A DNA stretch of 41,782 nt from an uncultured Syntrophorhabdus sp. Its GTDB lineage: Bacteria > Desulfobacterota > BSN033 > UBA1163. The translations under genes were made by a program, and so were the position numbers. Below are positions 11,631 through 41,782 of the stretch, piece by piece. Position 1 is the stretch's first letter. Each line of letters starts with the position of its first letter. The notes beneath the pieces were generated by a model. It ran no database searches, was not told where the DNA came from, and saw only the letters and a program-made list of their open reading frames with translations. The DNA lies in assembly GCA_964638215.1 (NCBI GenBank), contig CAZXBI010000001.1, positions 3,709 to 45,490 on the forward strand. Reading direction: 5' to 3'.

Positions 11631-11632
11631 GC

Positions 11633-23023: not shown

Positions 23024-23995
23024 ATGAACGAGATTGCCGCACCCTCTGAACCTATGTGGCAATGGATCAATTCACTGCCTTTCTGTCATCGATTCCAAGG
23101 AGAATGTTGCAGGGTGAACGGCATCAAATACTACAAGCCCAGGGACATAAAAGAAGCGTGCTCTCGATTGGCATCGGCGGATTTGTCTGCCAAACCCTTA
23201 GCAGGAGGGACAGACCTGCTGGTCCAGTTGCGGAGAGGAAAGATTACGCCGGGATGTCTTGTCGATCTGAAGAGCTTAGGGTTTGACGAGATGACGGCAA
23301 CTCCAGAGGGCGGGCTTAGAATCGGCGCTTTGTGCACATTGAATACGGTCCTTTCAAATAAGATTGTGGACCAAAGGTATCCGATCCTTGCCGAATCGAT
23401 AGCAGAACTGGCTTCCGTGCAGATACGGCACCGCGCCACCCTTGGCGGAAACCTCTGTAATGCCTCTCCCGCGGCTGACACAGCTCCGCCGCTTCTGGCG
23501 CTCGATGCCAGGGTGTCGATTGCTGGAATCAATGGCACCCGTGAAGTGTTGCTGGCAGACTTTTTTCAAGGACCTGGACAGACCTCTCTATTCCCGGGCG
23601 AAATAGTGACAGAGATCGTTTTACCGGCGCGACCTGAAAGAAGCGGAGGTGCCTATTTGAAGGCGAAGAGGACTGCTATGGATCTGGCCCTGGTCGGGGT
23701 AGCCGTTCACCTGTCTGTGGAGAATGACGAGCGGTGTGGCGAGGCAAAGATCTTTCTCGGGGCCGTGGCCCCTACTCCTTTGTTTGCGCCTCGGGCATCG
23801 GAGTCCCTTCGGAAGGCATCGATGGAGAAGAAGACGATCGGAGAAGTGGCAGCCCTGGCAGCCGAGGAGGCGCGACCCATCGATGATGTTCGAGCCAGTG
23901 CCTGGTACCGAAAGCGATTGATCAAGGTGTTGACCGAACGGGCCATCCTGACAGCTTACAGTCGCGCTATCGATGGCGCGAAAACAATCGCATAA
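23024..23995 (+). CDS. XDH/CODH-family FAD-binding medium subunit (CoxM-like), set 1
   Basis: Y.P....EA......A..LAGGTDLLVQLR, TLGGNLCNASPAAD, and a C-terminal CO-dehydrogenase-flavoprotein domain. The true start may be the GTG at 23114 (AAGGAG 11 nt upstream), which would give the usual ~293 aa. Confidence 0.8.
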   Translation: MNEIAAPSEPMWQWINSLPFCHRFQGECCRVNGIKYYKPRDIKEACSRLASADLSAKPLAGGTDLLVQLRRGKITPGCLVDLKSLGFDEMTATPEGGLRIGALCTLNTVLSNKIVDQRYPILAESIAELASVQIRHRATLGGNLCNASPAADTAPPLLALDARVSIAGINGTREVLLADFFQGPGQTSLFPGEIVTEIVLPARPERSGGAYLKAKRTAMDLALVGVAVHLSVENDERCGEAKIFLGAVAPTPLFAPRASESLRKASMEKKTIGEVAALAAEEARPIDDVRASAWYRKRLIKVLTERAILTAYSRAIDGAKTIA

Positions 23996-24006
23996 GGGAG
24001 AATCGA

Positions 24007-24510
24007 ATGGAATATTCCATTTCTCTAACGGTCAATGGAAATCGTTACGAATTGTGTGTGAAGACCGAAACAACTCTGCTGAAGGTGCTTCGCGAAGATC
24101 TTGATCTCACGGGCACCAAGGACGGCTGCCATGAAGGCGAATGTGGAGCGTGCACTGTAATCATGAACGGAAGGCCGGTTAATGCCTGCCTTGTGCTGGC
24201 AGTGGAAGCAGATGGTAGCGAGATTTTAACGGTGGAGGGACTTTCCGAAGGCGAAGAATTACATCCCCTGCAGCAGGCCTTCGTGGAATCTGGAGCCGTC
24301 CAATGCGGGTTCTGTACCCCGGGCATGCTGATGTCTGCCAAAGCATTGCTCGATCATAACCCCAGACCTACCGAGGCGGAAATCCGTCAGGCCCTGAGGG
24401 GGAACCTCTGCCGATGCACCGGTTATAAAAAGATCGAGAAGGCCATTCAACAGGCAGCAAGAGCACTGAGAGGTGAAAAAGGATGGCTGAAACATCCGTT
24501 TCAGGTGTGA
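24007..24510 (+). CDS. XDH-family [2Fe-2S]x2 small subunit (CoxS-like), set 1
   Basis: LTGTKDGCHEGECGACTV...C (plant-type cluster), then QCGFCTPGM...GNLCRCTGY (second cluster). Confidence 0.9.
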   Translation: MEYSISLTVNGNRYELCVKTETTLLKVLREDLDLTGTKDGCHEGECGACTVIMNGRPVNACLVLAVEADGSEILTVEGLSEGEELHPLQQAFVESGAVQCGFCTPGMLMSAKALLDHNPRPTEAEIRQALRGNLCRCTGYKKIEKAIQQAARALRGEKGWLKHPFQV

Positions 24511-26822
24511 TGGATTTTTCCATCATCGGTCAACCCGTTCCGCGGGTTGATGCTGTACCCAAGGTTACGGGGCATACCAAGTATCTCCAGGATATGAAGA
24601 TTCCCGGTATGCTTTATGGGAAAATCTTGCGAAGTCCTTTTCCTCATGCTCGAATCAGGCGCATCGATGTAAGTCGTACATGCCAGTTTCCTGGAGTACG
24701 GGCTGTGATCACAGCCCAAGATGTTCCCCACAACAAGTTCAGCTTCATTCCCGCCCTTGCTGACAAGTTCATGCTCTGTGACGAAAAGGTAAGATTCGTT
24801 GGGGATGAGGTTGCAGCCCTTGCTGCCGACACGCCCGAGATCGCGGAACATGCCATTCGTCTCATCGAAGTTGAATACGAACCCCTCCCGGGCATTTTTG
24901 ATCCTGAAGAGGCGGCCAAGCCCGGCGCCGTGCTCGTCCATGAGGAGCGCGACAGCAATATCACCTATGAGACCCATCGGGAGTTCGGCGATATTGAAAA
25001 CGGATTTGCCGAGTCAGACTACGTTTTCGAAGAGAAGTTTCGAACCTCTCGCGTGGCCCACTGCTGCTTGGAAACACGGGGTTGCGTCGCGGTCTACGAC
25101 AGGGGCGGAAAAATCACGCTATGGGCACCCGTTCAGGCTCCCCACCTCATCCGGCAGGAGATGGCCCGGATCTTGGGAATTCAGAGGTCTCAGATCCGTG
25201 TTATCAATACCCCTGCAGGCGGTGCCTTTGGCAGCAAGTCGGTGATGGATGTGGCCATGCCGATTGCCGCTGTGCTCTCACGTCTCACACGCCGGCCGGT
25301 AAAGATGAGCAATACGCGTGAAGAAGAATTCATCACTGCCCGTTGTCGCTATCCCTATGTCGTTCACCTGAAGACCGGCGTGAACCGTGATGGCAGAATC
25401 ATGGCCAAGCAGGCGAAGGTCTATATCGATAATGGTGCATATAATGATCGTGGGCCCTCCACTCTGAACTGGGCAGGGTTGGCCTTCTCTGCGCTGTATA
25501 ACGTCCCGAATGGGAGCTATCACGGATATGGGGTTTATACTAACAATGAACCTGGCACCGCTTTTCGCGGTTTTGGCAGTCCCCAACTCACCTTTGCCTT
25601 TGAAAATCATTTGGACCGGATTGCCGCAGGGCTCGGCTTGGATCCGATGGAGATACGGCTTCGAAATAGTCACTGCAGCGGCCAGACCACGCATAGCGGA
25701 TTTTTCATCAACTCCTGCGGTTTGAACGAGTGCATTGAAGAGGCGGCAAGGCGGTCGGGTTGGGTCGAAAAGAGGCGTGCCTACTCCCCCCAACAGGGTT
25801 CCGATGCGGTGAGGAGGCGGGGCATTGGTATGGCCTGTATGGCTCACACGGGTGCTGGAACGCGTTATTACGGCTATGCCGCAACCGATACGTTCATTAA
25901 GTTGAGTGAAGATGGGATCGTCACCGTCATCACGCCCACTCCGGAGATCGGCCAGGGCACAACCACTGCGATTGCGCAGATCGTGGCCGAGAAACTGGGA
26001 GTGAACCTCCAGGATATCAGAATCGTCAACGACGATACCGATATAACCTCCTACGATCTCGGCGCCATCGGAAGCCGGGAGACCTTCATCTGCGGCAACT
26101 CGGCATTGGCAGCCGCCGAAGAAGCCAGAAAGGAACTGCTGGAGGTGGCTGCTCGGATGCTCGACTGTGAGGCTGCCATCCTCATAGTATCAGGAGGTCG
26201 AATCTTTCCAAAAAAAGAACCCAACGGCCCTTCGGTTTCTACCCGGGAAGTGGCAGAACACGCGGTCTTCAAAATGGGGCGACCTATTTCAGGCCGCGGT
26301 CGGTATGCGGATGAACTTGCTCCCACGGCATCCCTCAGCACAGGGCACACTATCCACGTACCCACCTGGGCCTTTGCTTGCCAGATCGCAGAAGTAGAGG
26401 TGGATCAGGAGACGGGCCAGGTGGATGTTCTGAAAATGACCGCTATCCACGACACGGGCACGGTCCTCAACCCTCTCTTGGTAGAAGGACAGGTCGAGGG
26501 GTCTTTGGCGCAGGGTTTGGGAAGCGCGCTCACAGAGGAGCTCGTTACAAAACAGGGCGTCCCCCAAAACCGCACTTTTACAGATTATAAGATCTTTCAT
26601 GCAGAGGATATGCCTGAGATTGATCTGGGCTTTGTGGAGATCTTTGATTCATTGGGACCGTTTGGGGCCAAAGGCATTGGAGAGTCTGGGATTGTGGCCA
26701 CCGCGGCTGCGCTTGGAAACGCCATTTACCATGCTACCGGGCTTGAGCTCAATGAACTTCCCCTCAGCCCTGAGCGAATTCTGAAGGCTCTGGATCACGT
26801 CAGATCACAACCTGCAAAATAG
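24483..26822 (+). CDS. XDH/aldehyde-oxidase-family molybdopterin-binding large subunit, set 1
   Basis: The N-terminal a/b-hammerhead region is GQPVPRVDAVPKVTG...Y..D......MLYGKILRSPFPHARI. Also GGAFGSK and the C-terminal catalytic-Glu motif PFGAKGIGESG. An alternative start is the ATG at 24510, overlapping the small-subunit stop (TGATG). Confidence 0.85.
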   Translation: MAETSVSGVMDFSIIGQPVPRVDAVPKVTGHTKYLQDMKIPGMLYGKILRSPFPHARIRRIDVSRTCQFPGVRAVITAQDVPHNKFSFIPALADKFMLCDEKVRFVGDEVAALAADTPEIAEHAIRLIEVEYEPLPGIFDPEEAAKPGAVLVHEERDSNITYETHREFGDIENGFAESDYVFEEKFRTSRVAHCCLETRGCVAVYDRGGKITLWAPVQAPHLIRQEMARILGIQRSQIRVINTPAGGAFGSKSVMDVAMPIAAVLSRLTRRPVKMSNTREEEFITARCRYPYVVHLKTGVNRDGRIMAKQAKVYIDNGAYNDRGPSTLNWAGLAFSALYNVPNGSYHGYGVYTNNEPGTAFRGFGSPQLTFAFENHLDRIAAGLGLDPMEIRLRNSHCSGQTTHSGFFINSCGLNECIEEAARRSGWVEKRRAYSPQQGSDAVRRRGIGMACMAHTGAGTRYYGYAATDTFIKLSEDGIVTVITPTPEIGQGTTTAIAQIVAEKLGVNLQDIRIVNDDTDITSYDLGAIGSRETFICGNSALAAAEEARKELLEVAARMLDCEAAILIVSGGRIFPKKEPNGPSVSTREVAEHAVFKMGRPISGRGRYADELAPTASLSTGHTIHVPTWAFACQIAEVEVDQETGQVDVLKMTAIHDTGTVLNPLLVEGQVEGSLAQGLGSALTEELVTKQGVPQNRTFTDYKIFHAEDMPEIDLGFVEIFDSLGPFGAKGIGESGIVATAAALGNAIYHATGLELNELPLSPERILKALDHVRSQPAK

Positions 26823-26825
26823 AAG

Positions 26826-26849
26826 GAACGGGCAGCAGTCCCGTTTATT
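26826..26849 (+). terminator. Weak terminator-like hairpin after large subunit 1
   Basis: AACGGG (26827-26832) pairs with CCCGTT (26840-26845), followed by TATT. The stem is short. Confidence 0.3.
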
Positions 26850-26965
26850 CGGAGCCTCGTCATGGGAAACGAAAGGGGGTGATTGAGAAGAGGGTTGATG
26901 GTGGATTGAAAAGGCGAGTTGAAAAATTTCTCTTCTTTAAAAAATGCTTCAAAGGGAGGAATGGA

Positions 26966-28156
26966 ATGAAAACGGCAATGATGAGATACTTGGTCTTAAC
27001 TCTTTGTTTATCTTTATTGTCTGTTGGGTTAGCTGTGGCTGCCGAACCGATCAAGATCGGGATCGTCTGGCCCCTCACTGGACCCATTGCTGCCTCCGGA
27101 TCCTACCTGAAAGGAGGGGCGGAAATAGCGAGAGACAAGATTAACTCTGAGGGAGGAATCCTGGGAAGGCCTATCAGATTACTGATCGAGGACGGTGCCA
27201 ATGACCCGGCTCAATCGGTGAGCGCCGCAGAGAAGTTGGTGACAAGAGACAAAATTGATATCATTATGGCGGCTTGGGGAAGTTCGCCTTCCATTGCGGT
27301 CAGCTCAAGCGTAACAAGAAAGTATGGAATTCCTCATGTGGTCGAAACGGCGACGGCCGACAAAGTGACGAATGATGGAGGAAAGAGACCTAACCCGTGG
27401 TTGTTCCGCATCAGCCCAACGAATCGGGTCTTAGCAGAGGGTATTGAACAATATCTGGTTCCCAAAATGGGATTCTCCAGCGTTGCTTTAATGGCAGTGA
27501 ATAATGACTGGGGCAGAGGGATGGTCGATGAGTTGACGACTGTTATTAAAAGGTCGGGTGGCAAGATTACCGCAACTGAGTTCATCAACCAGGATGCCAA
27601 CGAATTCCTGACCCAGCTCGGAAAGATCAACAGTTTGGGTGCGAATTCTATCATTGTCACTACGGAGATGGTGCAGGTAGCTGAGGTCTTGAAACAGTAC
27701 AAACAGTTATCGATGAAGCAGAAGATCCTGACCACTGCTGGCGGGGTCGTCCCGGAGGGGCTGATCGACCTTGCGGGAAAAGATGCGGCGGAAGGAGTCT
27801 ACATTTTGCGGTTAAATTCACTCCCCATAGGGACCTCCGTCCCCGGGTTTCAGGCGCTGACCAAAATACCTGAGGAGGCCAAGTGGTTTGTCGACGAATA
27901 TCTGGGAAGGGGTAACTCGGTTAAAGGCCTGGACGATGGTTACCGCAGCTACGACGCCCTGAAGGCGATGAAGGCGGCTCTGGAAATTGCGAAAACAACG
28001 GATAAGGAAAAGGTCCGGGAGGCTTTTCATAAGGTGGACACATGGGGTTTGACCGGCCGGATCAAATTCGACGAATTCGGTCAGAGCCGACCCAGTACCT
28101 ACGTTATCCAGGTCAAGAGCGGCAAGGCTATCCTGCCTGAATTTCTGACCCGGTGA
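26966..28156 (+). CDS. LivK/PBP1-family periplasmic substrate-binding protein (paralog SBP4)
   Basis: The ATG at 26966 follows AAGGGAGGA. Signal peptide ...LAVA-AEP. It carries the shared paralog blocks, plus a divergent insertion at 27803-27859. Confidence 0.8.
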   Translation: MKTAMMRYLVLTLCLSLLSVGLAVAAEPIKIGIVWPLTGPIAASGSYLKGGAEIARDKINSEGGILGRPIRLLIEDGANDPAQSVSAAEKLVTRDKIDIIMAAWGSSPSIAVSSSVTRKYGIPHVVETATADKVTNDGGKRPNPWLFRISPTNRVLAEGIEQYLVPKMGFSSVALMAVNNDWGRGMVDELTTVIKRSGGKITATEFINQDANEFLTQLGKINSLGANSIIVTTEMVQVAEVLKQYKQLSMKQKILTTAGGVVPEGLIDLAGKDAAEGVYILRLNSLPIGTSVPGFQALTKIPEEAKWFVDEYLGRGNSVKGLDDGYRSYDALKAMKAALEIAKTTDKEKVREAFHKVDTWGLTGRIKFDEFGQSRPSTYVIQVKSGKAILPEFLTR

Positions 28157-28222: not shown

Positions 28223-29356
28223 TTGGCTGCTTTTTTAATTCTACTGTCGACTGGCTTCGCTTTTGCTGCCGAACCGATCAAGATCGGGATTATCTGGCCC
28301 TTAACCGGTGCCAATGCTGCCGCTGGCAACTACATGGTAGCAGGCGCCGAAATAGGTCGGGATAAGATCAACGCCGAAGGCAGTATCTTGGGAAGGCAGA
28401 TCAGATTGATTATTGAAGATGGCGCACAGGACCCGGCCATCTCAGTGAGTGCTGCGGAAAAAATGATCACCCGGGATAAGATTGATCTTTTCATGGGAGC
28501 CATGGGAAGTTCACCGACCATTGCCGTGAGTACGAGTGTGACGAGAAAATACGGGATCCCGCATGTCGTTGAAACAGCAGGTGCCGGAAAGGTGACAGAA
28601 GAGAATGGAAAGCGGCCCAATCCCTGGTTATTCCGGGTAAGCCCGACGAACTGGATGGAGGCGGATGGAAGCGAAAAAAATCTCCAGAAAATGGGGATCA
28701 CGAAGGCAGCCCTTCTCTTGGTCAATACGGATTGGGGAAGAGACGTGGGCAATCTATTTCCCAAGGTTCTGGAGAGGATCGGCGGCAAGGCGGTGATGAC
28801 GGACTTTTTCAATCTGGATCAGTCCGAGTTTCTGACCCAACTGACGAAGATCAAGAGTTCCGATGCCAATAGGATTATTGTTGCCGGCCACCAGGCCACC
28901 ATCTCTCTTATTATGAAGCAGTACAAACAGTTGGGCTTGACACAGAAGGTGCTGACCCTGGGAGGAGGGATTGTTCCCGAAGGACTGGTAGAGCTTGCCG
29001 GGAAAGAGGCCGCAGAGGGAGTTTACATCAATACCTTCTTCACGCTCTGGTTCCCAGAGCTGACCAAGATACCGCAGGAAGCCAAGGGGTTTGTTGACGA
29101 GTACCTGAAGCGAGGAAATCCGGTCAAAGGGTTCGGGGAGTGCTTCCGTGGCTACGACGGACTGAAGGCGATGAAGGCAGCTCTCGAGATAGCCCAGACG
29201 ACAGACAAAGAGAAAGTGAGAGATGCCTTTGCGAAGGTGGACACATGGGGATTATCAGGCCATATCAAATTTGACAGCTTTGGCCAGAGTACCCCCACTG
29301 TTTATGTGGTAATGGTGAAAGATGGCAAGCCGGCCATCCCGGAATTTATGAAATAA
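28223..29356 (+). CDS. LivK/PBP1-family periplasmic substrate-binding protein (paralog SBP5), N-terminus interrupted by an in-frame TGA
   Basis: The mature region is intact and carries all paralog blocks. The expected start is the ATG at 28193 (RBS AGGAGGA), but MGKKMMK is followed by TGA at 28214-28216 in the same frame. The only downstream restart is the TTG at 28223. Confidence 0.7.
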   Translation: MAAFLILLSTGFAFAAEPIKIGIIWPLTGANAAAGNYMVAGAEIGRDKINAEGSILGRQIRLIIEDGAQDPAISVSAAEKMITRDKIDLFMGAMGSSPTIAVSTSVTRKYGIPHVVETAGAGKVTEENGKRPNPWLFRVSPTNWMEADGSEKNLQKMGITKAALLLVNTDWGRDVGNLFPKVLERIGGKAVMTDFFNLDQSEFLTQLTKIKSSDANRIIVAGHQATISLIMKQYKQLGLTQKVLTLGGGIVPEGLVELAGKEAAEGVYINTFFTLWFPELTKIPQEAKGFVDEYLKRGNPVKGFGECFRGYDGLKAMKAALEIAQTTDKEKVRDAFAKVDTWGLSGHIKFDSFGQSTPTVYVVMVKDGKPAIPEFMK

Positions 29357-29369
29357 GATACTCAAAAAC

Positions 29370-29401
29370 CATCCCCTTCCCCAGTATTGGGGAAGGGGAT
29401 G
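29370..29401. terminator. Perfect 14-bp hairpin after SBP5
   Basis: CATCCCCTTCCCCA, loop GTAT, then TGGGGAAGGGGATG. The A-run lies on the 5' side (CAAAAACC) and there is no T-run on the 3' side in the + orientation. Confidence 0.4.
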
Positions 29402-29620
29402 AAGTGAGTCCTGAAAGTTTGCGCAGAAGGAGATCTATCAGGTTGCCGAAAAAACCTTTCTTCAGGCTGTTCAAAAATGCCCAGATGCAAGGCCTCCGAA
29501 ATCCTGAGGATGAGGCGTACTTGGATGAACGCCGCAATAAGCCTGCCCCGTGCTCGACACGGGGCAGGATGAGGGAAACGCGGCAGATGGGCGTTTTTCA
29601 GTAGCCTGCTATTGGCGATG
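29402..29620. repeat. Structured non-coding spacer (repeat-element-like) with a second perfect hairpin
   Basis: It sits in the 330-nt gap before livH2. An 11-bp perfect stem is formed by CCTGCCCCGTG (29542-29552) and CACGGGGCAGG (29558-29568). The sequence style (…TTCAAAAATGCCCAGATGCAAGG…GAGGCGTA…) resembles intergenic repeat families I have seen in anaerobe genomes. Only one copy occurs in this window. Confidence 0.3.
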
Positions 29621-29686: not shown

Positions 29687-30556
29687 ATGCTTTTCATCCA
29701 ATACGTGATCAATGGGTTGATCGTTGGCGGCGCTTATGCACTTATCGGGATCGGACTGACGCTGATCCTAGGCATCATGAATGTTGTCAATTTTGCCCAT
29801 GGCGAGATGTACATGCTCGGGGCGTATTTCCTTTATACGTTTTTCTCCCTCCTGGGCATTAATTTTTACTTCAGTATCCTCTTGGCGATCGCGGCCGTCA
29901 TGGTGATTGGATTTTTCTGTGAAAAGGTCGTCCTGAAACCTCTGAGAAAGAGATCGATCGAAACTGTAATGCTGGCTATGATCGGTGTTTCTCTGTTGTT
30001 CCAGAATATTGCGATGTTATCCTGGACAGCGGTTCCTCAATCGATCAGGAGCCCCTTTCCGCCGGAAGCCATCATCATCGGGGGGCTTTATTTTATCCCT
30101 CAGAGGATCCTGGTGATCGCTATTGCTTTCCTGTTTGTGATGCTTACCCATCTTTTGTTAAAAAAGACGAAGCTCGGCAAGGCGATGCGTGCGACCTTCT
30201 TGGACAGTGAGACAGCCTCACTGATGGGAATCAATAGTGACCGAATCTACTCCTTCACCTTTGTCTTGGGAGCGGGGCTGGCGGCTGCTTCGGGTGCCCT
30301 GTTAGGTCCCATCTTCACCGTCCATCCTTACACTGGAAACCTGGCCAATCTGAAGGCCTTTACGATCGTGATCTTTGGAGGGCTCGGGAGTTTTACGGGC
30401 GCCATTACCGCTGGGCTTCTTCTCGGGATTTTCGAAAGCTTAGGGGCAGGCTATGTCTCTTCAGGATATCAAGATGCAGTGGGCTTCCTCATGCTCATTC
30501 TGATTCTGATCGTCAAACCCACCGGCCTTTTTGGAAAGATAGGAATAACGCGATGA
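29687..30556 (+). CDS. livH: ABC permease, LivH family (second transporter)
   Basis: Q.VINGL.VGG.YALIGIGLTLILG....VNFAHGE. Multi-pass hydrophobic protein of 289 aa. Confidence 0.85.
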   Translation: MLFIQYVINGLIVGGAYALIGIGLTLILGIMNVVNFAHGEMYMLGAYFLYTFFSLLGINFYFSILLAIAAVMVIGFFCEKVVLKPLRKRSIETVMLAMIGVSLLFQNIAMLSWTAVPQSIRSPFPPEAIIIGGLYFIPQRILVIAIAFLFVMLTHLLLKKTKLGKAMRATFLDSETASLMGINSDRIYSFTFVLGAGLAAASGALLGPIFTVHPYTGNLANLKAFTIVIFGGLGSFTGAITAGLLLGIFESLGAGYVSSGYQDAVGFLMLILILIVKPTGLFGKIGITR

Positions 30557-31557: not shown

Positions 31558-32324
31558 ATCAACCTGAAATTCTTAAGATTCAAGAATTGACCGTCAGATT
31601 TGGCGGGTTGAGGGCTGTTGATACCGTCGACTTTTCCATACTTAAGAATGAAATCGTGAGCTTGATCGGTCCTAATGGGGCAGGAAAGACGACGACGTTC
31701 AACGCCATCACCGGTTTCGTCAGAAAGGAAGCGGGAACGATCGAATTTGAGGGCAACCGGTTAGAGCGCTTACGACCCCACCAGATTGCCGAAAGGGGGG
31801 TTGTCCGGACGTTTCAGATCACCTCCCTTTTTCGAAACCTGACTGTTCTGGACAATATCCGGACCGGCCGCCATATGCAAGAGAAGGGGAACCTCTTTGA
31901 TACCCTTCTTAATACGAGACGAAAGCGGAAGGTCGAAGATGAGAACTTGGAAAAAACCATGGAGATCCTGAAATTTATCGGTCTGGAGGATGTGAAAGAC
32001 ACCATCGCATCCAATCTGCCCTTCGGAGACCAGAGAGCTCTGGAGATCGGCGTGGCCCTGGCGGCCGAACCCAAGTTGCTCTTACTGGACGAGCCTTCTG
32101 CAGGCCTGAATGATGCCGAAACACAGGTGATGATGGCTTTGATCAAAAAGATGAGAGATAACGGAATTACCATTCTTCTCGTGGAACATGATATGAAGCT
32201 TGTCATGGGGATCTCGGATCGAATCGTGGTACTCAATTTTGGTAAAAAAATTGCTGAAGGAGCCCCGGCTCAAATCAGATGTGACCCACAGGTCATCACT
32301 GCCTATTTAGGGGAGAGAAGATAA
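31554..32324 (+). CDS. livG: ABC ATP-binding protein, LivG family (second transporter)
   Basis: GPNGAGKTT, LPFGDQRALEIGVAL, LLLLDEPSAG. It has a 4-nt overlap with livM2. Confidence 0.85.
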   Translation: MNQPEILKIQELTVRFGGLRAVDTVDFSILKNEIVSLIGPNGAGKTTTFNAITGFVRKEAGTIEFEGNRLERLRPHQIAERGVVRTFQITSLFRNLTVLDNIRTGRHMQEKGNLFDTLLNTRRKRKVEDENLEKTMEILKFIGLEDVKDTIASNLPFGDQRALEIGVALAAEPKLLLLDEPSAGLNDAETQVMMALIKKMRDNGITILLVEHDMKLVMGISDRIVVLNFGKKIAEGAPAQIRCDPQVITAYLGERR

Positions 32325-32325
32325 G

Positions 32326-33075: not shown

Positions 33076-35358
33076 ATGGAGAGTCGCGTGGTCGGTGAGA
33101 ATCCATATAATGAAGAGACTCTGGACAAAGTCCTGGGAATCACAGAGTTTATCTCTGATCTAAGTTTCGAAAATGCCTTAGTCGCGAAAGCCCTCCGTTC
33201 CCCGTTTCCTCATGCCAAGATTCTGGGAATCGATACATCGGAAGCTCATAAAGTTTCAGGCGTGGTCGCTATCTTCACGGCCAAAGACGTACCCGGGACG
33301 AATCGGTTCGGTGTGGAGATGAGGGACAGGCCGGTCTTATGCGACGATGCAGCAAGATCGATTACTGATGTCGTCGCACTGGTGGTGGGAGAATCCGAAG
33401 AGGCAGTGGATGCAGCCCTTCCAAAGATCAAAGTCTCCTACCGGGAGTTGAAAGCCATATTCACCCCTCAGGATGCCCTGAAGGAAGATGCACCCAGGAT
33501 CCATGAAAAAGGAAATATTTTAAAGCATTTCCGGATCCGGAAAGGGGACATCGAAGCAGCCTTTAGGAAATGTGCCGTCATCGTTGAAGGGCAATACCAG
33601 ACCCAGAATGCAGATTCCGCACCTCTGGAGACCGAAGCGGGAGCAGCCCTGGTTGACCCGAGCGGCATCCTCAAGGTCTGGGCTGCCACCCAGATTCCCG
33701 GACGTGACGTGGACCAGATTTCAGAGGCTCTTGCTCTGCCCAAGAATAGAATCGAACTGGTGGTTCCTCCCATCGGAGGTGGCTTCGGGTGCAAGTGTGA
33801 GATCAATTGTCAGATTCTGGCGGGACTGGCTGCGCTCAAGACCGGTCGACCCGTGAGGATGCAGTGGAGCCGGGAGGAATCTTTCCGGGGGCATCAGAAG
33901 CGCCATCCTGCGTGGGTAAAAGTGAGAACAGGGGCCACTGACGATGGCAGGCTTCTCGCAATGGAAGAGGAGATCCTTCTGGACGGCGGGGCTTACTGTT
34001 CATGGTCCTTCGGTGTTGGCAGAAATGCCACGGTCTTTTCGACAGGCCCCTACAATATCCCCAACGTGAACATCGATACCTATCTCGTTTTCACCAACAA
34101 TATTCACAGCGGAGCCATGAGAGGGTTTGGGGTTCCCCAGCCGGCCTTTGCAACAGAACTTCAAATGGAAAAAATCGCAGAGCAACTGGGCATGGACCCG
34201 GCGGAAATCAGGCTCAAAAATGGCATGGAGGCCGGGGCCAGCCTAGCCAATCAGGACATTCTTAGGAGCAGCGTCGGATTCAAGGGAACCCTAACAAAGG
34301 CATTGGAACTGGCAGATTGGAAGAGAAAGCGGCAGGAAATTGACGAATTTAACAGTCGTGCCAAAGGAAATATCCGACGGGGAATCGGGATAGCCTGTGC
34401 GTTTAAGAATGCAGGGAGGCTGGGTGATCATGCGGAGGCGGACATAGAAGCCCTGCCCGAAAAAATCAAAGTCTATATAGACTCAGCCGATGTGGGACAG
34501 GGGGTCAGGATGCTGGCTGCCCAGGTTGCAGCCGAGGAATTGGGTTTACCCCTCGAAAGGATAGAGATCGAGCCCACCAATTCCCTGACCTGCCCCCGTT
34601 CAGGGGACTCTTTCAGTTCGCGCCAAACCCTCTGCTCAGGAAATGCGGTCCTCAATGCGGCCCTCAATCTCAAGGAGGAGATCTTAGCGAAAGTGGCTGA
34701 GCTTTGGGATGAGTCCCCAGATCGAATCCATCTCGTAAAAGGAAGGATTGCGTCTCCTGGAAAAGGACAGATCTCTCTCTTCGATTTTATTGCCCGGGAA
34801 AGAGAAAAAGGGGTTCGCTTCAGGGCAAGAGGAATCTACCAGGCGCCCCCTTATATCGATATGGACCCGGAGACAGGGAAAGGGGCTTGCTGGTATGCCT
34901 ATGCTTTCGGAACACAGATAGCTCTAGTCGAGGTCGACGTTGAGACAGGACAGATCTGGGTGAAAGATCTCGTCGCTGTTCACGACGTTGGCAAGGCGAT
35001 TAATCCCAAGGCGGTCGAGGGCCAGATAGAGGGCGGAGTGGCCATGGGCCTGGGATTTGCACTCATGGAGGATTTTGTCCTCGACAAGGGACAGATCGTC
35101 ACAACAGACCTGGAGAGGTACGTCGTTCCTACGTCAATGGATGTGCCCCTGATTCGCGCCAGTTATGAAGAGGAGAAGGAATGGCAGGGACCTTTCGGAG
35201 CTAAGGGGTTTGGCGAATGTCCAGTGGTGCCTACAGCTCCTGCCATCGTCAATGCGATCCATCATGCGACAGGGGCCTGGATCGAACAGTTACCTGCCAC
35301 ACCGGAGCGCGTATTCAAGGCCTTACATCAAGAGGGTGGGCATTCCTCTCGCACGTAG
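33076..35358 (+). CDS. XDH-family molybdopterin-binding large subunit, set 2
   Basis: LDKVLG...F..D......ALVAKALRSPFPHAKI, GGGFGCK, and the C-terminal PFGAKGFGECP. 760 aa. Confidence 0.85.
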   Translation: MESRVVGENPYNEETLDKVLGITEFISDLSFENALVAKALRSPFPHAKILGIDTSEAHKVSGVVAIFTAKDVPGTNRFGVEMRDRPVLCDDAARSITDVVALVVGESEEAVDAALPKIKVSYRELKAIFTPQDALKEDAPRIHEKGNILKHFRIRKGDIEAAFRKCAVIVEGQYQTQNADSAPLETEAGAALVDPSGILKVWAATQIPGRDVDQISEALALPKNRIELVVPPIGGGFGCKCEINCQILAGLAALKTGRPVRMQWSREESFRGHQKRHPAWVKVRTGATDDGRLLAMEEEILLDGGAYCSWSFGVGRNATVFSTGPYNIPNVNIDTYLVFTNNIHSGAMRGFGVPQPAFATELQMEKIAEQLGMDPAEIRLKNGMEAGASLANQDILRSSVGFKGTLTKALELADWKRKRQEIDEFNSRAKGNIRRGIGIACAFKNAGRLGDHAEADIEALPEKIKVYIDSADVGQGVRMLAAQVAAEELGLPLERIEIEPTNSLTCPRSGDSFSSRQTLCSGNAVLNAALNLKEEILAKVAELWDESPDRIHLVKGRIASPGKGQISLFDFIAREREKGVRFRARGIYQAPPYIDMDPETGKGACWYAYAFGTQIALVEVDVETGQIWVKDLVAVHDVGKAINPKAVEGQIEGGVAMGLGFALMEDFVLDKGQIVTTDLERYVVPTSMDVPLIRASYEEEKEWQGPFGAKGFGECPVVPTAPAIVNAIHHATGAWIEQLPATPERVFKALHQEGGHSSRT

Positions 35359-35363
35359 AAACC

Positions 35364-36251
35364 ATGATCAGAGATCATTTCTTTCCAAGAACAATCGATG
35401 AGGCTCTACACCTCCTAAGCGAATACACTGGAAAGGCGAGGATCATCGCCGGCGGCACTGACCTGATCGTAGAGATCCGGAGAAGAGCGTTCTATTTTGA
35501 ATTCCTTGTCGACATCGGAAAGATAGACCGCCTCAGATCGATCCAGGAAGAAGACGAAAAGATCTTTATTGGTGCGGGTGTCACCTTCACCGATCTAGAG
35601 ACCCATGAGTTGCTTAGAAAAAACTTCTCAGCCCTTTCGCAGGCAGCGAGCCTTGTGGGTGGCCCTCAGATCAGAAACAGGGGCACCCTCGGAGGGAACA
35701 TTGTTTCTGCACAGCCTGCAGCTGATGGAGCTCTTGCACTCTTTGCATTAGATGCGACCGTGGAAATCGCAAGCCCTGAAGGGGTTCGGGAAGTTCCGAT
35801 CCACAAGGCCTATATTGACATGGGCAGGTCCGAGGTCGATCCCTCAAGGGAAATTCTGGTCGGGGTCCGATTGGACAAGCGCAAAAAAAGAGAGGGAAGC
35901 AATTATCAGCGGCTGGCAGTCCGAAAGGCGATGCAGCTCCCGATCCTGGCCTGCGGAGTCTCTCTCATCGCGCAAGATCAGTCGTTAGATCTCGCGAGGA
36001 TAGCCGTCGGGCCTGTGTCCGATACTCCTTTCAGGGCAATCAGGGCAGAAGATTTCTTAAAAGGGAAGCCTTTAACCGAGGAAGTTTGGAGAGAAGCAGG
36101 AAGAATCGTTTCCGAAGAAGTGAATCCTCGCTATTCCAGGCTGAGAGGCGACTCCGGTTATAGGAAGGCCCTTGCGTCTATCCTCGTGAGACGAGCCCTC
36201 CAACAGGCCTCAATAGAAATACAGGATGAGAAGGTGAGCAGCAGAAGATGA
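35364..36251 (+). CDS. XDH-family FAD-binding medium subunit, set 2
   Basis: The ATG at 35364 lies 5 nt after the large-subunit stop. F.PRTIDEAL.LL.......IIAGGTDLIVEIR, and GTLGGNIVSAQPAAD. Confidence 0.85.
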   Translation: MIRDHFFPRTIDEALHLLSEYTGKARIIAGGTDLIVEIRRRAFYFEFLVDIGKIDRLRSIQEEDEKIFIGAGVTFTDLETHELLRKNFSALSQAASLVGGPQIRNRGTLGGNIVSAQPAADGALALFALDATVEIASPEGVREVPIHKAYIDMGRSEVDPSREILVGVRLDKRKKREGSNYQRLAVRKAMQLPILACGVSLIAQDQSLDLARIAVGPVSDTPFRAIRAEDFLKGKPLTEEVWREAGRIVSEEVNPRYSRLRGDSGYRKALASILVRRALQQASIEIQDEKVSSRR

Positions 36252-36730
36252 CAGAGAAGAAACCGCATGGCAAAGAAGTCGTGCTCAAAACAAATGGGAT
36301 TGAAGAGAGAGTTTTTTGCTCCCCTGGTGAAACCTTACTCTCCGTGTTGAGGCATCGGCTTAACCGTACCGAAGTGAAGGAAGGCTGCGGAAAGGGTGAT
36401 TGTGGAGTCTGCACGGTGCTTCTTGACGGGATGCCCGTTGATTCCTGTCTTGTACTGGCGTATCAGGCGGAGGGGAAGGAGATTACAACGGTGAAGGGGT
36501 TGGGGACGAGAGAGAACTTGCATCCCCTTCAAAAACAGTTTGTCGTAAAGGGAGCCATACAGTGCGGGTTCTGTACCCCCGGGCAGTTACTATCTGCAAA
36601 AGCTCTTTTGGAAAAGAACCGCAGTCCGTCCATAGAAGACATCCAGAGGGCACTTTCAGGGAATCTCTGCCGCTGCACCGGATATACAAAAATCATCGAG
36701 GCGGTATTGGCTGCATCCAAAGAGATTTGA
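36248..36730 (+). CDS. XDH-family [2Fe-2S]x2 small subunit, set 2
   Basis: GCGKGDCGVCTV...C, then QCGFCTPGQ...GNLCRCTGY. It overlaps the FAD-subunit stop (ATGA). Confidence 0.9.
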   Translation: MTEKKPHGKEVVLKTNGIEERVFCSPGETLLSVLRHRLNRTEVKEGCGKGDCGVCTVLLDGMPVDSCLVLAYQAEGKEITTVKGLGTRENLHPLQKQFVVKGAIQCGFCTPGQLLSAKALLEKNRSPSIEDIQRALSGNLCRCTGYTKIIEAVLAASKEI

Positions 36731-38359: not shown

Positions 38360-40660
38360 ATGGTGACCACGGATAATATGAAGAAACAACCTTTTTCATG
38401 TGTTGGATATTCAGTACCCAAAATTGATGCTCTTGATAAAGTCCTCGGCAAAGCCGTTTATGCGGAGGATATTTCTTTCCCGAACATGCTCTATGGCAGG
38501 GTTCTCCGTGCTGGTATCCCTCATGCCATCATCGAGGAGATCGATACGAGCAAAGCCAAAGCGATGAAGGGGGTTGTCTGTGTACTTACGGCGAAAGATA
38601 TCCCTGGAATCAACCGATACGGAATCGCCTTTCAGGATCAGTATGCAATGGCAGAGGGCAAGGTTCGCTATATTGGTGATCCAGTTGCCCTGGTCGCAGC
38701 GGAGACTGAAGAGGCAGCCAAAGACGCGATCAAGGCAATCCAGGTAAAATACCGTGAGCTTCCCGTGATCACGAATCCCCATCAAGCTCTTGCGGAAGGG
38801 GCTCCCAAAATCCATGAGAAAGGGAACCTTCTACTTCATTCCAAGATTCGAAAGGGGAATGTTGATTTTGGTTTTTCAAAGGCCGATGTGATTGTCGAAA
38901 ACACCTATCGCACTCATGTCGTGGATCATGCTTACATGGAGACAGAATCGGGTATCGGCAGGATGGACGAACATGGCAATATCGTCATCTGGTCCGCCAA
39001 TCAGTGTCCTTTCCGAGATCGAAGGCAGGTGGCGGTTGTGCTCGGGATGAGAGAGAACAAAATCCGGGTGATTCGGGCAACCACGGGAGGCGCCTTCGGG
39101 GGAAAGGATGACGTTACCGTCGAAATCCATATCGGCCTCTTAGTTCAGACGACGGGACGTCCTGTCCGCCTCGTATTAGAACGGGAAGAATCCTTTCTTT
39201 CCCAGACCAAACGCCATGCTATAGAGGTTTGGACCCGCTGGGGTGCGACCCATGATGGAAGGCTTTGTGCCATGGAGGGGAAGGTATATGGAGATAAAGG
39301 CCCCTATGCAGGGCTTGGGGCTTTTGTTATCAAAAAATGCGGGATTCACCTTTCAGGACCTTATTATATTCCGAATATCAAGGTAGATTCTTTCAGCGTG
39401 TATACCAACAACCTCTTCGGGAGCGCCATGCGGGGATTTGGTGTTGCTCAGGCAGCCATTGCCCACGAAGCCCAAATGGATGAATTGGCGAAAAAGCTCG
39501 GGATCGATCCCTTAGAGTTTAGGCTCATGAATGCCTTGGATCACGGTCTTTCGACGCCGACAGGCCAGGTCTTTTACGAGGGCGTGGGTATCAAAGCGAC
39601 CCTTGAAAAAATCAAAGAGGTCCGATCGAAGGATCCTTCCTTTCGGAATTATCGGAAAAAAGAGACCAGCACGAAGAAGTATGGGATTGGCATCGGGTCC
39701 ATGTTTTATGGTTTGGGCTATGGTTTTTCCCGTCAGGATATCTCTTCTGCGACGATTGAGATCTGTGAAGATGGGTCTGTCATCGTCCGGTCCGGTGAGG
39801 TCGATTACGGGCAGGGATCCGATACCATCTTCTGCCAGATCGTGGCTGAGGAGTTGGGGATTCGATACGATGAAATCCAGATGATTACTGCGGACACCTT
39901 TGCTACGCCCAATGCAGGACCCACTTCAGCCAGCCGGGTTACTTATGTAACAGGGAATGCGATGATAAAGGCCTCACGGGCCTTAAAAAAGACCCTCCAG
40001 AGCATGGCTGAAGAAATTTTGGGAGCAAAGGATCTCGTTTTTGTGGACGAAGAGATCCATTCGGAGTCCAAACTTGAGAAGAAGATCAGCTTCAAGGCAT
40101 TGGCTAAGGAATGCCATAATCGGGGACTTCAAATGGTTGAAACCGCTTGGCATGACATCACGACGAAAGACGTCGATCCAGAAACCGGGCAAGGGGATGC
40201 CTACTCTGCCTATGCGTATGCTTCTCAGCTTGCGGAAGTGGAGGTGGATACTGAGACAGGCAAGGTGGAGGTGCTCCGCATCATATCTGCCACAGATGCA
40301 GGCAAGGCGATCAATCCCTTGAATGTGGAGGGGCAGATTGAGGGGGGGGCTGTGATGGGGATCGGCTATGCCTTGACAGAAGAGATCAAGACAGAGGGAG
40401 GGTATCTCAAGACAAGATCGCTGGGGGAATACATGATTCCGACGAGTCTCGATGTGCCGCGGATCGAGCCCTATATCATTGAAGTTCCTGTATCACGGGG
40501 GCCTTACGGAGCGAAGGGAGTTGGAGAGCCTGCACTGATTCCCACGACTCCTGCAATCCTTAATGCGATTGCCGATGCGGTGGGGGTTCGAGTGGTCGAT
40601 CTTCCGGCGAATTTGGAAAACCTCTACCGGTTAATCGAGGAAAAGAAAGGGAAGAGATAG
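38360..40660 (+). CDS. XDH-family molybdopterin-binding large subunit, set 3
   Basis: IDALDKVLGKAVYAEDISFPNMLYGRVLRAGIPHAII, GGAFGGK, and PYGAKGVGEPA. 766 aa. Confidence 0.85.
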   Translation: MVTTDNMKKQPFSCVGYSVPKIDALDKVLGKAVYAEDISFPNMLYGRVLRAGIPHAIIEEIDTSKAKAMKGVVCVLTAKDIPGINRYGIAFQDQYAMAEGKVRYIGDPVALVAAETEEAAKDAIKAIQVKYRELPVITNPHQALAEGAPKIHEKGNLLLHSKIRKGNVDFGFSKADVIVENTYRTHVVDHAYMETESGIGRMDEHGNIVIWSANQCPFRDRRQVAVVLGMRENKIRVIRATTGGAFGGKDDVTVEIHIGLLVQTTGRPVRLVLEREESFLSQTKRHAIEVWTRWGATHDGRLCAMEGKVYGDKGPYAGLGAFVIKKCGIHLSGPYYIPNIKVDSFSVYTNNLFGSAMRGFGVAQAAIAHEAQMDELAKKLGIDPLEFRLMNALDHGLSTPTGQVFYEGVGIKATLEKIKEVRSKDPSFRNYRKKETSTKKYGIGIGSMFYGLGYGFSRQDISSATIEICEDGSVIVRSGEVDYGQGSDTIFCQIVAEELGIRYDEIQMITADTFATPNAGPTSASRVTYVTGNAMIKASRALKKTLQSMAEEILGAKDLVFVDEEIHSESKLEKKISFKALAKECHNRGLQMVETAWHDITTKDVDPETGQGDAYSAYAYASQLAEVEVDTETGKVEVLRIISATDAGKAINPLNVEGQIEGGAVMGIGYALTEEIKTEGGYLKTRSLGEYMIPTSLDVPRIEPYIIEVPVSRGPYGAKGVGEPALIPTTPAILNAIADAVGVRVVDLPANLENLYRLIEEKKGKR

Positions 40661-40670: not shown

Positions 40671-41534
40671 ATGCAGCGGTTTCATTTTTATTCGCCGAAG
40701 TCGATCGAAGAAGCGTTGACCTATCTTTCAGATAAAGGAGATCGGTGCAAAATGATTGCAGGAGGAACCGACCTGATTCCTGCCCTTCGGACAGAGTCCC
40801 TTCATCCGGAATTCGTCCTTGATCTTTTGGAAATCGAACAGATGAGAGGAATCAGGGAAATCGATCACACTATTTGGATTGGTCCCACCATGACCTTTAC
40901 GGAAATAGTGGAATCCGATCTCCTCAGCCGTCATTTTCCATTACTAGTTCAGGCAGCAGCCTCCGTGGGAGGTCCCCAGATCAGAAACAGAGGAACTGTT
41001 GGTGGAAATATTGCGAATGCGTCGCCGGCGGCTGATGTGTTACCTGCCATTCTGGCCCTGGACGGGGAATTGGAACTTCAGTCCAAGACCTATGGAAAGA
41101 GGAGGCTTCCGTTAGACGAGGCTATTGCATCTCCCTATAGGACAAATTTCAGGCCGGATGAGATCCTAACAGGAATCGTCATTAAAAAGCTGGAAGAAGG
41201 AACAAAGTGTGGTTTTGAAAAGCTTGGACGTCGAAATGCGATGGCCCGAGCGAGGATGAACCTCTCCGTGGTGCTCCAGATGGATCGGGAAGAGAGGGTC
41301 AAGGAGTTGAGGATTGTTCCTGGGGCAGTGATGCCGATGGCAAGGAGGGTGAAGAGTGCTGAGGGAAGGCTTCTGGGACAGAAGCCAGAGGCATCGCTGG
41401 TCGAGATTACAATAGAGGCATTATCAAAGGAGATGGTGCAGGTGGCGGGTGTGAGGTGGTCAACAGGGTATAAGGTCCCTGTACTGAAAAACATGACACG
41501 AAGACTCTTGAGGGAACTGATAGAAACAGATTAA
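40671..41534 (+). CDS. XDH-family FAD-binding medium subunit, set 3
   Basis: F.FYSPKSIEEAL.YL.......MIAGGTDLIPALR, and GTVGGNIANASPAAD. 287 aa. Confidence 0.85.
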   Translation: MQRFHFYSPKSIEEALTYLSDKGDRCKMIAGGTDLIPALRTESLHPEFVLDLLEIEQMRGIREIDHTIWIGPTMTFTEIVESDLLSRHFPLLVQAAASVGGPQIRNRGTVGGNIANASPAADVLPAILALDGELELQSKTYGKRRLPLDEAIASPYRTNFRPDEILTGIVIKKLEEGTKCGFEKLGRRNAMARARMNLSVVLQMDREERVKELRIVPGAVMPMARRVKSAEGRLLGQKPEASLVEITIEALSKEMVQVAGVRWSTGYKVPVLKNMTRRLLRELIETD

Positions 41535-41631
41535 AGAATTGTTATCGAAAGCAGTCCTGTAATGGGATGATTGATCAACCGATAGGTATATTGAATGCGT
41601 TGGAATGAGAGGGTGGAGGGAGCGGACAAGG

Positions 41632-41782
41632 ATGTCTGAGAAGACTCTATTACGGATGGAAGTGAACGGGAAGACCGTGGAGGTTCTGATAGGACCTACG
41701 CGGACTCTGCTTCAGGTACTTCGAGAAGAGTTAAAATTGACGGGGACGAAAAAGGGTTGTGGACAGGGAGATTGTGGGGTCT
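41632..41782 (+). CDS. XDH-family [2Fe-2S] small subunit, set 3 (5' part only, runs off the window)
   Basis: My own translation gives MSEKTLLRMEVNGKTVEVLIGPTRTLLQVLREELKLTGTKKGCGQGDCGV..., which matches the CoxS-type N-terminus. It is not in the supplied ORF track because it is truncated by the window end. Confidence 0.75.
   Translation, partial: MSEKTLLRMEVNGKTVEVLIGPTRTLLQVLREELKLTGTKKGCGQGDCGV

Follow-up and report, generated by a model that had tools for sequence, protein, structure and literature searches.

Three xanthine-dehydrogenase-family heterotrimers in a one-directional catabolic island of an uncultured Syntrophorhabdus sp. and their possible role in anaerobic N-heterocycle breakdown

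To our knowledge, O2-independent hydroxylation is the sole known anaerobic attack on pyridine, pyrimidine and purine rings, and such genes are, as far as we know, almost uncharacterised outside clostridia and gut bacteria. The closest described systems are the nicotinate dehydrogenase NdhFSLM of Eubacterium barkeri (3HRD), the 4-hydroxybenzoyl-CoA reductase (4-HBCR) HcrABC of Thauera aromatica (1RM6), the purine xanthine dehydrogenases XdhABC of Escherichia coli and PucCDE of Bacillus subtilis, and the aerobic CO dehydrogenase CoxLMS. Here we describe a stretch of 41,782 nt from an uncultured Syntrophorhabdus sp. (GCA_964638215.1, contig CAZXBI010000001.1; the whole stretch is called the window), in which positions 23024-41782 hold three complete heterotrimers of the xanthine dehydrogenase (XDH) family, each composed of a molybdenum (Mo), a flavin adenine dinucleotide (FAD) and a 2x[2Fe-2S] (FeS) subunit.

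Enzymes of this type do not always act as hydroxylases, since 4-HBCR and E. coli XdhD (urate to 2,8-dioxopurine) operate reductively (PMC12507026). In the reductive urate (2,8-dioxopurine) pathway of E. coli (ygeW-xdhD) and Clostridium sporogenes, the oxidation state is fixed by an XDH homologue, an Fe-S flavoenzyme resembling dihydropyrimidine dehydrogenase (DPD) dearomatises the ring, and an M20 enzyme and a pyridoxal-phosphate (PLP) enzyme finish the conversion (PMC12507026; bioRxiv 10.1101/2025.04.24.650524). The operon of the third heterotrimer described here follows the same logic. XdhD, or DOPDH, is reported to be anaerobic, NAD-independent and closest to the nicotinate dehydrogenases and was described as having no FAD-binding domain (bioRxiv 10.1101/2025.04.24.650524).

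The three sets are numbered in their order along the window. L1, L2 and L3 denote the large (Mo) subunits, M1-M3 the FAD subunits and S1-S3 the FeS subunits, and L4 is the large subunit of a fourth set. Metagenome contigs are named L001, L003 and so on and are distinct from the large subunits L1-L4; L001 is the Logan contig that is identical to the window. The Pfam and NCBIfam scans covered every plus-strand open reading frame (ORF) of the window.

Family membership of the three heterotrimers

L1, L2 and L3 each matched PF01315 (hammerhead), PF02738 and PF20256 with E-values of 1e-23 to 1e-81, which excludes chance, and the medium subunits matched FAD_binding_5 and CO_deh_flav_C. All eight cysteines were intact in S1-S3, within the motifs C-x4-C-x2-C-x11-C and C-x2-C-x31-C-x-C. 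L1, L2 and L3 carried GGAFGSK, GGGFGCK and GGAFGGK, respectively, and the C-terminal catalytic-Glu motifs GPFGAKGIGE, GPFGAKGFGE and GPYGAKGVGE; the catalytic Glu (GAKGxGE) and a Gln near Mo=O were invariant in all three when aligned with NdhLM and E. coli XdhA. The trimers truly belong to the xanthine oxidase family. They have the superfamily and the subunit types in common with CoxLMS, but the AYRCSFR loop of CoxL is absent, its position being taken by TAFRGFG, GAMRGFG and SAMRGFG in L1, L2 and L3 (pattern A(F/M)RGFG), and the CoxL model (TIGR02416) gave them 353, 258 and 321 of the 991 bits required.

The genes of set 1 are arranged FAD-FeS-Mo and those of sets 2 and 3 Mo-FAD-FeS, and an SdhA-like flavoprotein separates sets 2 and 3. 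This layout was already given in a preliminary description made from the letters of the window, and the Pfam scan bears it out, as it does the scar of a fourth set reported at 17943. The motifs quoted there, GG(A/G)FG.K and (F/Y)GAKG.GE, are present in L1-L3, and its exclusion of aerobic CO dehydrogenases is upheld by the missing loop and the low CoxL scores. Also confirmed were its co-directional genes and the presence of a UbiD (de)carboxylase, a cytoplasmic bis-molybdopterin guanine dinucleotide (bis-MGD) enzyme and corrinoid methyltransferase parts in the window. In agreement with it, the scans detected no transposase, integrase, helix-turn-helix protein, CoA ligase or XdhC/MocA gene in the window; genes for SelD, YqeB and YqeC, which serve the maturation of the labile selenium at Mo in the E. 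barkeri type of nicotinate dehydrogenase, were likewise absent from the window and the fetched flanks. Its statement that no regulator is present holds for protein regulators in the window, but a glycine riboswitch heads the island (Table 1). The sets had been called paralogous, which for sets 1-3 fits in an ancient sense only: the pairwise identity among L1, L2 and L3 is 33-40%, and each trimer has its own clade and its own conserved neighbour genes.

Scored against models of characterised enzymes, L1, L2 and L3 reached, respectively, 675, 494 and 556 bits with 4-HBCR alpha (TIGR03194; cut-off 994.55), 505, 541 and 625 bits with PucD (cut-off 784) and 617, 517 and 564 bits with XdhA (NF043082; cut-off 780). 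The MOP-type aldehyde model (NF045668) gave 389-464 bits (cut-off 1100), the PaoC model 288-318 bits (cut-off 1180) and the glyceraldehyde dehydrogenase alpha model 367-476 bits (cut-off 790). The best NCBIfam match was 4-HBCR alpha for L1 and PucD for L2. Tight clustering of all three large subunits with purine XDH or aldehyde oxidoreductases, which the preliminary description had named as evidence against its reading, was not seen, since no such cut-off was passed, though the large subunits attain 66-80% of the purine-XDH cut-offs.

The nearest solved structure to L1 was 4-HBCR (1rm6, 429 bits, the best single-chain PDB match), which comes from an anaerobe and has the three-subunit build in common with set 1; L1 and HcrA are 35% identical. 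L2 and L3 gave 515 and 621 bits when summed over both chains of the E. barkeri nicotinate dehydrogenase, as against 322 and 400 bits with 4-HBCR. The E. barkeri enzyme belongs to the same family as set 3 and has the same cofactor set; the identity of L3 is 43% to NdhL, in a gapless alignment of 409 residues, and 44% to NdhM, compared with 42% and 36% for L2 and 36-37% for L1. E. coli xdhABC has the same L-M-S order as sets 2 and 3, and XdhA is 30-34% identical to the large subunits. A neighbour-joining tree of ten sequences, built without bootstrap (NdhLM and HcrA taken from PDB alignments, XdhA and XdhD from E. coli K-12), placed L3 and L4 as sisters of NdhLM, with L2 branching outside this group and L1 by itself close to HcrA, and none of the window's large subunits grouped with XdhA or XdhD in this tree. 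A search of plasmid proteins found only uncharacterised relatives at no more than 41% identity. By these comparisons set 3 looks nicotinate-dehydrogenase-like, with PucD-type models about equally near. The trimers are neither CO dehydrogenases nor 4-HBCR, and they are not demonstrably purine XDH, nicotinate dehydrogenase or aldehyde oxidoreductase.

A test of purine specificity was dropped as non-discriminating. The positions that we take to be the substrate-binding Glu802 and Arg880 of purine XDH (bovine numbering) were S/W in L1, C/N in L2 and D/K in L3, and E. coli XdhA itself, with Q/A, lacks both in the alignment.

Conserved neighbourhoods of the sets and the decayed fourth set

The identical contig L001 runs 6.2 kb beyond the end of the window and completes the operon of set 3 with S3 (154 aa in full) and genes for an M20 deacylase, a PreT-like protein, a PreA-like protein and a PALP-family PLP enzyme. 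The M20 protein is of the ArgE/DapE type (395 bits, cut-off 428), the PreT-like protein is a GltD/PreT-like Fe-S flavoprotein, and the PreA-like protein scored 302 bits against 335 required for the dihydropyrimidine dehydrogenase PreA. The preliminary description had reported no ring reductase, which is correct inside the window, but the context check places this DPD-like PreT/PreA reductase just past 41782. The order L3-M-S-M20-(PreT)-PreA-PALP490 was found in at least eight independent contigs (window/L001, L086, L087, L088, L094/L095, L097, L101 and L110), in L086 only in part. In L087 the operon stands alone behind an FmdA/AmdA-like gene. In L094 the first genes of the operon encode a binding protein and a LivHMGF importer, 68-75% identical to the window's binding protein SBP3 and second importer, and the last gene encodes an aminotransferase (17834-19132), with a tandem glycine riboswitch and gcvHP after it. 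Later steps of the nicotinate pathway of E. barkeri use an enamidase and a B12 mutase, among others; none of these genes is present with set 3.

L3 is one fused chain, whereas the E. barkeri enzyme has split L and M chains. Homologues of L3 at 75-91% identity number in the dozens and occur in both forms, as a single chain of 760-770 aa or as chains of about 430 and 330 aa with overlapping stop and start codons (examples of the two forms: L003:369-2719; L092:1-2158; L094:10001-12294; window 38360-40660). The split point of NdhL/NdhM is that of the fourth set in relatives and of most members of the L3 clade. Since fused and split forms are 75-90% identical, fusion or fission of this large subunit appears to be recent and frequent. 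On L086 the fused orthologue of L3 is not followed by FAD and FeS genes belonging to it.

PALP490, the last gene of the set-3 operon, encodes an orphan fold-type-II PLP enzyme of 490 aa (L087:13500-14972; L001:16573-17325; L096-L175) whose PALP match is weak (42 bits) and which scores 66 bits with cysteine synthases. The enzyme is very common in metagenomes, where at least 582 matches share 65% identity or more with it. Among its 80 best-matching loci, 41 of at least 9 kb were assessed; a ThrC-like PLP gene was found in 21 of these 41.

The scar at 17943-18341 is an ORF of 132 aa in which the N-terminal hammerhead of a large subunit of the set-3/4 type is fused to the C-terminus of an FeS subunit. 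Residues 5-101 are 78% identical to aa 8-104 of L3 and 75% identical to the split large subunit L4a of L003, and residues 93-132 are 72.5% identical to aa 115-154 of S3; about 3.2 kb was lost in frame. L003-L005 carry at this position the intact fourth set, which consists of a split large subunit (453 and 330 aa), an FAD and an FeS subunit. At 69-84% identity per subunit, it is a recent paralogue of set 3. Three further genes of the window are truncated: an SdhB-like gene with only the N-terminal 2Fe-2S domain (8525-8848, 107 aa), a C-terminal LamB/YcsF fragment (8951-9280, 109 aa) and a fragment of a B12-binding domain just before UbiD (14381-14671, 96 aa). Together with the scar, they indicate that the island is undergoing gene decay.

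Set 1 is preceded by the bis-MGD enzyme and a protein of the URO-D superfamily in four independent contexts, namely the window, L003-L005, the P0008 contig and L092, where the L1 orthologues are 81% (L003-L005), 67% (P0008) and 70% (L092) identical to L1. The P0008 contig has a corrinoid protein and further bis-MGD genes alongside set 1. L092 packs much of the island into 18 kb in the order split-L set, UbiD, bis-MGD, URO-D, set 1, SdhA-like flavoprotein, PALP488, ThrC-like PALP415 and UbiX; its UbiD, lying between the split-L set and the bis-MGD gene, is a 76% orthologue, and its flavoprotein adjoining set 1 is 59% identical to that of the window. In L093, a set of the L1 clade (56% identity) is surrounded by UbiD, a PreA-like protein, a NicX/M29-like protein, a cupin and an M20 hydrolase. 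L1 orthologues at 67-84% identity were found on metagenome contigs only. A profile search with the L1 clade among genome contigs yielded 80 loci, with 51% identity at best and with no URO-D or corrinoid genes next to any of them.

Many homologues of L1 carry the JGI label "4-hydroxybenzoyl-CoA reductase alpha subunit". HcrB has an extra insertion that binds a [4Fe-4S] cluster (1RM6). M1 (293 aa) has five scattered cysteines and no 4-Cys insertion of the HcrB type, and it matches the HcrB model (TIGR03195) in two pieces, with 136 bits against 405. As the L1 clade falls below the curated cut-off and lacks an HcrB-type partner, the label is likely a systematic misannotation.

The bis-MGD enzyme has no signal peptide, its Fe4S4 domain begins at residue 13, and it reached no equivalog cut-off. 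Its nearest structures are PsrA (236 bits) and acetylene hydratase (230 bits), and formate dehydrogenases are also near; pyrogallol transhydroxylase was ruled out as a model with just 83 bits. The URO-D protein gave 149 bits with the MtaA/CmuA subfamily model (cut-off 235), and its nearest structure is MtaA (4ay7, 60 bits).

The clade of L2 is rare, with six homologues at 61-73% identity and the next at no more than 45%. A Liv-type importer stands directly before L2 in every context found (window, L089 and L090). The SdhA-like flavoprotein behind set 2 has no SdhB partner and reached no equivalog cut-off. Compared with FrdA, His44 is replaced by Asn (no covalent FAD) and His232 by Tyr, and Arg287, His355 and Arg390 are kept. 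The loss of the covalent-FAD His and of one substrate His, with retention of these three residues, suggests a carboxylate of the enoate or amino-acid type as its possible substrate.

Proposed role of the island and rival explanations

The region is the 3' two-thirds of a one-directional catabolic island of about 48 kb, built of modules that also occur singly elsewhere. Going by the names of homologues, the host, apparently an anaerobe, is probably a member of the Thermodesulfobacteriota. We consider, with guarded confidence, that the island probably serves the uptake and O2-independent breakdown of N-heterocycles, which could be of the pyridine-carboxylate, pyrimidine or purine type, possibly N- or O-methylated; the probabilities of this and the other readings overlap in part. 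The main evidence that the modules cooperate is that the same gene families occur together in shuffled orders elsewhere. The orthologues of the aminotransferase and importer in L094 and the D-Glu-cyclase-family gene next to PALP490 in L108 tie the two ends of the island together, and the M20, PreT/PreA and PLP enzymes conserved with set 3 indicate N-heterocycles.

In the proposed pathway, the Liv-type importers would take up the substrate, and each trimer would put a water-derived oxygen on a ring carbon next to N, or remove such an oxygen, with electrons passing from Mo through FeS and FAD to a carrier. Set 3 would yield a product of the pyridone or lactam type, the enamide double bond of which may be reduced by PreT/PreA, and the amide left after ring opening would be cleaved by the M20 deacylase. 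The orphan PLP enzyme and the aminotransferase would then act on the resulting amino-acid-like product, and here the pathway would connect to glycine metabolism. UbiD may take off a ring carboxylate, and the URO-D, corrinoid and MtmB-like parts may take off methyl groups. The reductive urate pathway follows a similar logic with non-orthologous proteins, so the direction of the reactions should not be assumed. "Hydroxylases", the term of the preliminary description, stands as a statement on the hydroxylase-type XDH family and not on direction, 4-HBCR and XdhD being reductive (PMC12507026). Its idea of one linked system gains from the recurrence of the families in differing orders, and the heteroaromatic part of its substrate proposal is the one favoured here. 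Hydroxy- or methoxy-benzoates find no support, as set 1 fails every 4-HBCR test and a CoA-ester context is missing. Importers of the aromatic-acid type, as claimed there, could not be sustained either: the binding proteins belong to the generic HAAT/Liv family.

Several observations weigh against the N-heterocycle reading. None of the NCBIfam equivalog cut-offs was reached by L1-L3 or M1-M3, and the set-3 operon has no conserved cyclic amidohydrolase that could open the ring. The nearest solved relatives of the generic binding proteins are amino-acid binders (98 bits). PALP490 is not exclusive to an XDH system, as XDH-family genes lie within 10 kb of it in just 14 of the 41 assessed loci. The modules are also found apart in other genomes and may serve different substrates, and the decayed genes (scar, LamB, B12 and SdhB fragments) may mean that the system is partly defunct.

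Each set is also met separately: L087, L094 and L097 have the set-3 operon without the other sets, and L089 and L090 have only set 2. This is what would be expected if unrelated catabolic modules had accreted, each acting on one compound and forming no single pathway. GC content varying from 0.43 to 0.54 and pseudogene fragments suggestive of turnover fit this as well. We give accretion a minor but appreciable chance, since it must contend with strict co-orientation, short gaps and the recurrence of the families together in L003-L005, L092, L086, L094 and L108, which argues for coupling of at least sets 1 and 3/4, UbiD, bis-MGD, URO-D, the SdhA-like flavoprotein, the PALP enzymes and the aminotransferase. 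It is also conceivable, though unlikely, that the trimers are isoenzymes of purine hydroxylase or XDH and that the downstream genes perform a non-orthologous anaerobic breakdown of purines to glycine. The scores of L3 with PucD (625/784) and of L1 with NF043082 (617/780), the L-M-S order of xdhABC, the links to the glycine riboswitch and gcvHP, and the urate-pathway logic of a DPD-like reductase with an M20 and a PLP enzyme all speak for purines. On the other side, no purine-XDH cut-off was passed, identity to E. coli XdhA is low, no purine transporters or deaminases lie near the three sets, and the importers are of the Liv type, whereas the E. coli purine cluster has the nucleobase transporters xanQ, ghxQ and uacT. 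The E. coli 2,8-dioxopurine cluster was rejected as an orthologous model: BLASTP against the E. coli K-12 proteins gave 28-30% identity for XdhD, 22% for YgeY and 31.5% for YgfK in its middle domain only, no match for SsnA, HyuA, YgeW or YgeX, and no counterpart of YqeA. Counterparts of YgeY, YgfK and YgeX are thus at most about 31% identical or undetectable, and carbamate kinase, purine permease and guanine deaminase are missing.

That at least one trimer works reductively, as a dehydroxylase that removes a ring oxo or hydroxy group with low-potential electrons like 4-HBCR and XdhD, is in our view rather improbable. The affinity of L1 to 4-HBCR alpha (675 bits; 1rm6, 429 bits), the placement of XdhD/DOPDH closest to the nicotinate dehydrogenases, the group of set 3, and a host that is apparently anaerobic would suit it, but the additional [4Fe-4S] loop, which in HcrB supplies low-potential electrons, is missing from M1, the trimers are just 28-35% identical to HcrA and XdhD, and all three sets keep the FAD subunit that DOPDH is described as lacking. 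Still less credence is due to homocyclic aromatic acids (hydroxy- or methoxy-benzoates) with set 1 as an enzyme of the 4-HBCR type. The JGI labels on L1 homologues and the presence of UbiD and of URO-D/corrinoid parts resembling an O-demethylase would be in line with it; set against these are the 4-HBCR scores (675 against 995 bits for HcrA, 136 against 405 for HcrB), the missing 4-Cys loop of M1, and the absence of an aryl-CoA ligase, benzoyl-CoA reductase or beta-oxidation-like genes from the window and from any syntenic locus. The binding proteins also gave only 32-49 bits with the structural-genomics binding proteins of the Rhodopseudomonas type, which we take to be aromatic-acid binders, although the hit list names none of them so. 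Equally improbable to us are FAD-containing aldehyde oxidoreductases of the PaoABC or glyceraldehyde-dehydrogenase type. Such enzymes do belong to the family, and the glyceraldehyde dehydrogenase alpha model reached 367-476 bits, but the PaoC, MOP-type and glyceraldehyde dehydrogenase models all stayed far below their cut-offs, and the neighbouring genes encode amide-, lactam- and amino-acid-type enzymes.

Within the N-heterocycle reading, a more specific proposal is that the island, and above all the widely distributed set-3-type operon, forms an undescribed anaerobic route for N-heteroaromatics in sediment Thermodesulfobacteriota, and that its union here with a second hydroxylase and the bis-MGD and URO-D/corrinoid partners of the latter would allow N-methylated pyridine carboxylates (trigonelline, homarine) to be converted to glycine and C1 units; we offer it as a speculation with a low chance of being right in full. 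No description of the set-3 operon or of the set-1/bis-MGD/URO-D trio was found in a literature search on XDH-family enzymes in anaerobes, clusters of URO-D, bis-MGD and XDH genes, nicotinate degradation by sulfate reducers, trigonelline demethylation and MtmB homologues without pyrrolysine. The three enzymes add new members to a family that is already known, and nothing shown requires new chemistry. What the locus adds is that uncultured bacteria resembling sulfate reducers possess several hydroxylases that diverged deeply and have conserved partner enzymes, themselves unstudied. For work on how uncultured sediment bacteria degrade N-heterocycles anaerobically it is a good and testable lead, though one that would not surprise specialists. 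The set-3-type operon, being common in metagenomes, is a concrete target for enrichment, proteomics and heterologous expression, and regioselective Mo hydroxylases for pyridine carboxylates are of biocatalytic interest. In metagenome surveys, automatic 4-HBCR labels on set-1-type proteins can inflate the predicted anaerobic degradation of aromatics.

Other features of the window

The coordinates of the features are listed in Table 1. According to the ORF listing, the entire coding content of the window is on the plus strand, in a continuous co-directional gene array with short gaps. The ten longest minus-strand ORFs gave no significant Pfam match (one sub-threshold, E 0.007), and a tRNA search of the window found none.

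Table 1. Positions of the main features in the window, with the basis of each assignment
Feature	Positions	Strand	Basis and remarks
Glycine riboswitch aptamer	83-171	+	RF00504, 69.9 bits, gathering threshold (GA) 32; about 190 nt upstream of aminotransferase
Class I/II aminotransferase	358-1656	+	Pfam; first gene of the window
UbiD-family (de)carboxylase	14668-16191	+	Pfam; TIGR00148, 343 bits, cut-off 245
In-frame deletion scar of fourth XDH-family set	17943-18341	+	Ald_Xan_dh_C 5e-19, Fer2_2 4e-10
Cytoplasmic bis-MGD molybdo/tungsto-enzyme	19627-21714	+	Pfam; N-terminal [4Fe-4S] domain
URO-D superfamily (MtaA/CmuA-like) protein	21782-22825	+	Pfam URO-D 2e-52
Set 1 FAD subunit M1	23024-23995	+	FAD_binding_5 1.5e-47, CO_deh_flav_C
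Set 1 2x[2Fe-2S] subunit S1	24007-24510	+	Fer2, Fer2_2
Set 1 Mo subunit L1	24483-26822 (779 aa)	+	Hammerhead, MoCoBD_1 4e-80, MoCoBD_2 4e-75
Two Liv/HAAT substrate-binding proteins	26879-28156, 28223-29356	+	Peripla_BP_6 1e-55, 6e-61
LivHMGF-type ABC importer	29687-33048	+	Pfam; directly upstream of set 2
Set 2 Mo subunit L2	33076-35358 (760 aa)	+	Pfam
Set 2 FAD subunit M2	35364-36251 (295 aa)	+	Pfam; mechanical ORF 35217-36251
Set 2 2x[2Fe-2S] subunit S2	36248-36730	+	Pfam
Soluble SdhA/FrdA/NadB-like flavoprotein	36747 (or ATG 36762)-38321	+	FAD_binding_2 1e-53, Succ_DH_flav_C
Set 3 Mo subunit L3 (fused, nicotinate-dehydrogenase-like)	38360-40660 (766 aa)	+	Pfam
Set 3 FAD subunit M3	40671-41534	+	Pfam
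Set 3 2x[2Fe-2S] subunit S3	41632-41782	+	Fer2; cut by the window end, full length on L001

Two starts differ from the ORF listing. The true start of M1 is probably GTG 23114, which is preceded by an AAGGAG motif and agrees with homologue alignments beginning at aa 31. The start of M2 follows the gene call on the identical contig L001 and the alignment of homologues.

The aminotransferase is 77.8% identical over all 432 aa to that of L094, and glycine riboswitches adjoin the aminotransferase in both. Behind it lie genes for a D-2-hydroxyacid dehydrogenase, a corrinoid protein (2835-3488) and a full-length homologue of the MtmB methyltransferase family on the plus strand (3513-4913; PF05369, 1e-81). 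The MtmB homologue has no in-frame stop and hence no pyrrolysine, matches no NCBIfam model and is possibly an N-methyl-amine:corrinoid methyltransferase. In L086 a methyltetrahydrofolate:corrinoid methyltransferase lies just downstream (356 bits, cut-off 259), and this gene in relatives fits a demethylation system made up of the corrinoid protein, the MtmB homologue and the URO-D protein. At 5010-6735, a "putative hydro-lyase" of the D-Glu-cyclase family (PRK05463, 399 bits against 324) overlaps a DUF6282 gene; in L108 a 73% homologue of the cyclase-family gene stands directly upstream of PALP490, and a homologue of the aminotransferase is also present.

The binding proteins of the window and those of L003 are 64-91% identical. 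GC content is lowest, at 0.43-0.45, in the first ABC importer (10000-14000) and reaches 0.54 in set 1 (23000-27000), a spread that suggests a mosaic origin of the island. The scan for promoters and terminators found nothing beyond shuffled expectation save one strong hairpin, a perfect 15-bp palindrome with nine G-C pairs at 29369-29402, inside the 330 nt that separate the second binding-protein gene from livH; this hairpin may be an RNA stabiliser or attenuator.

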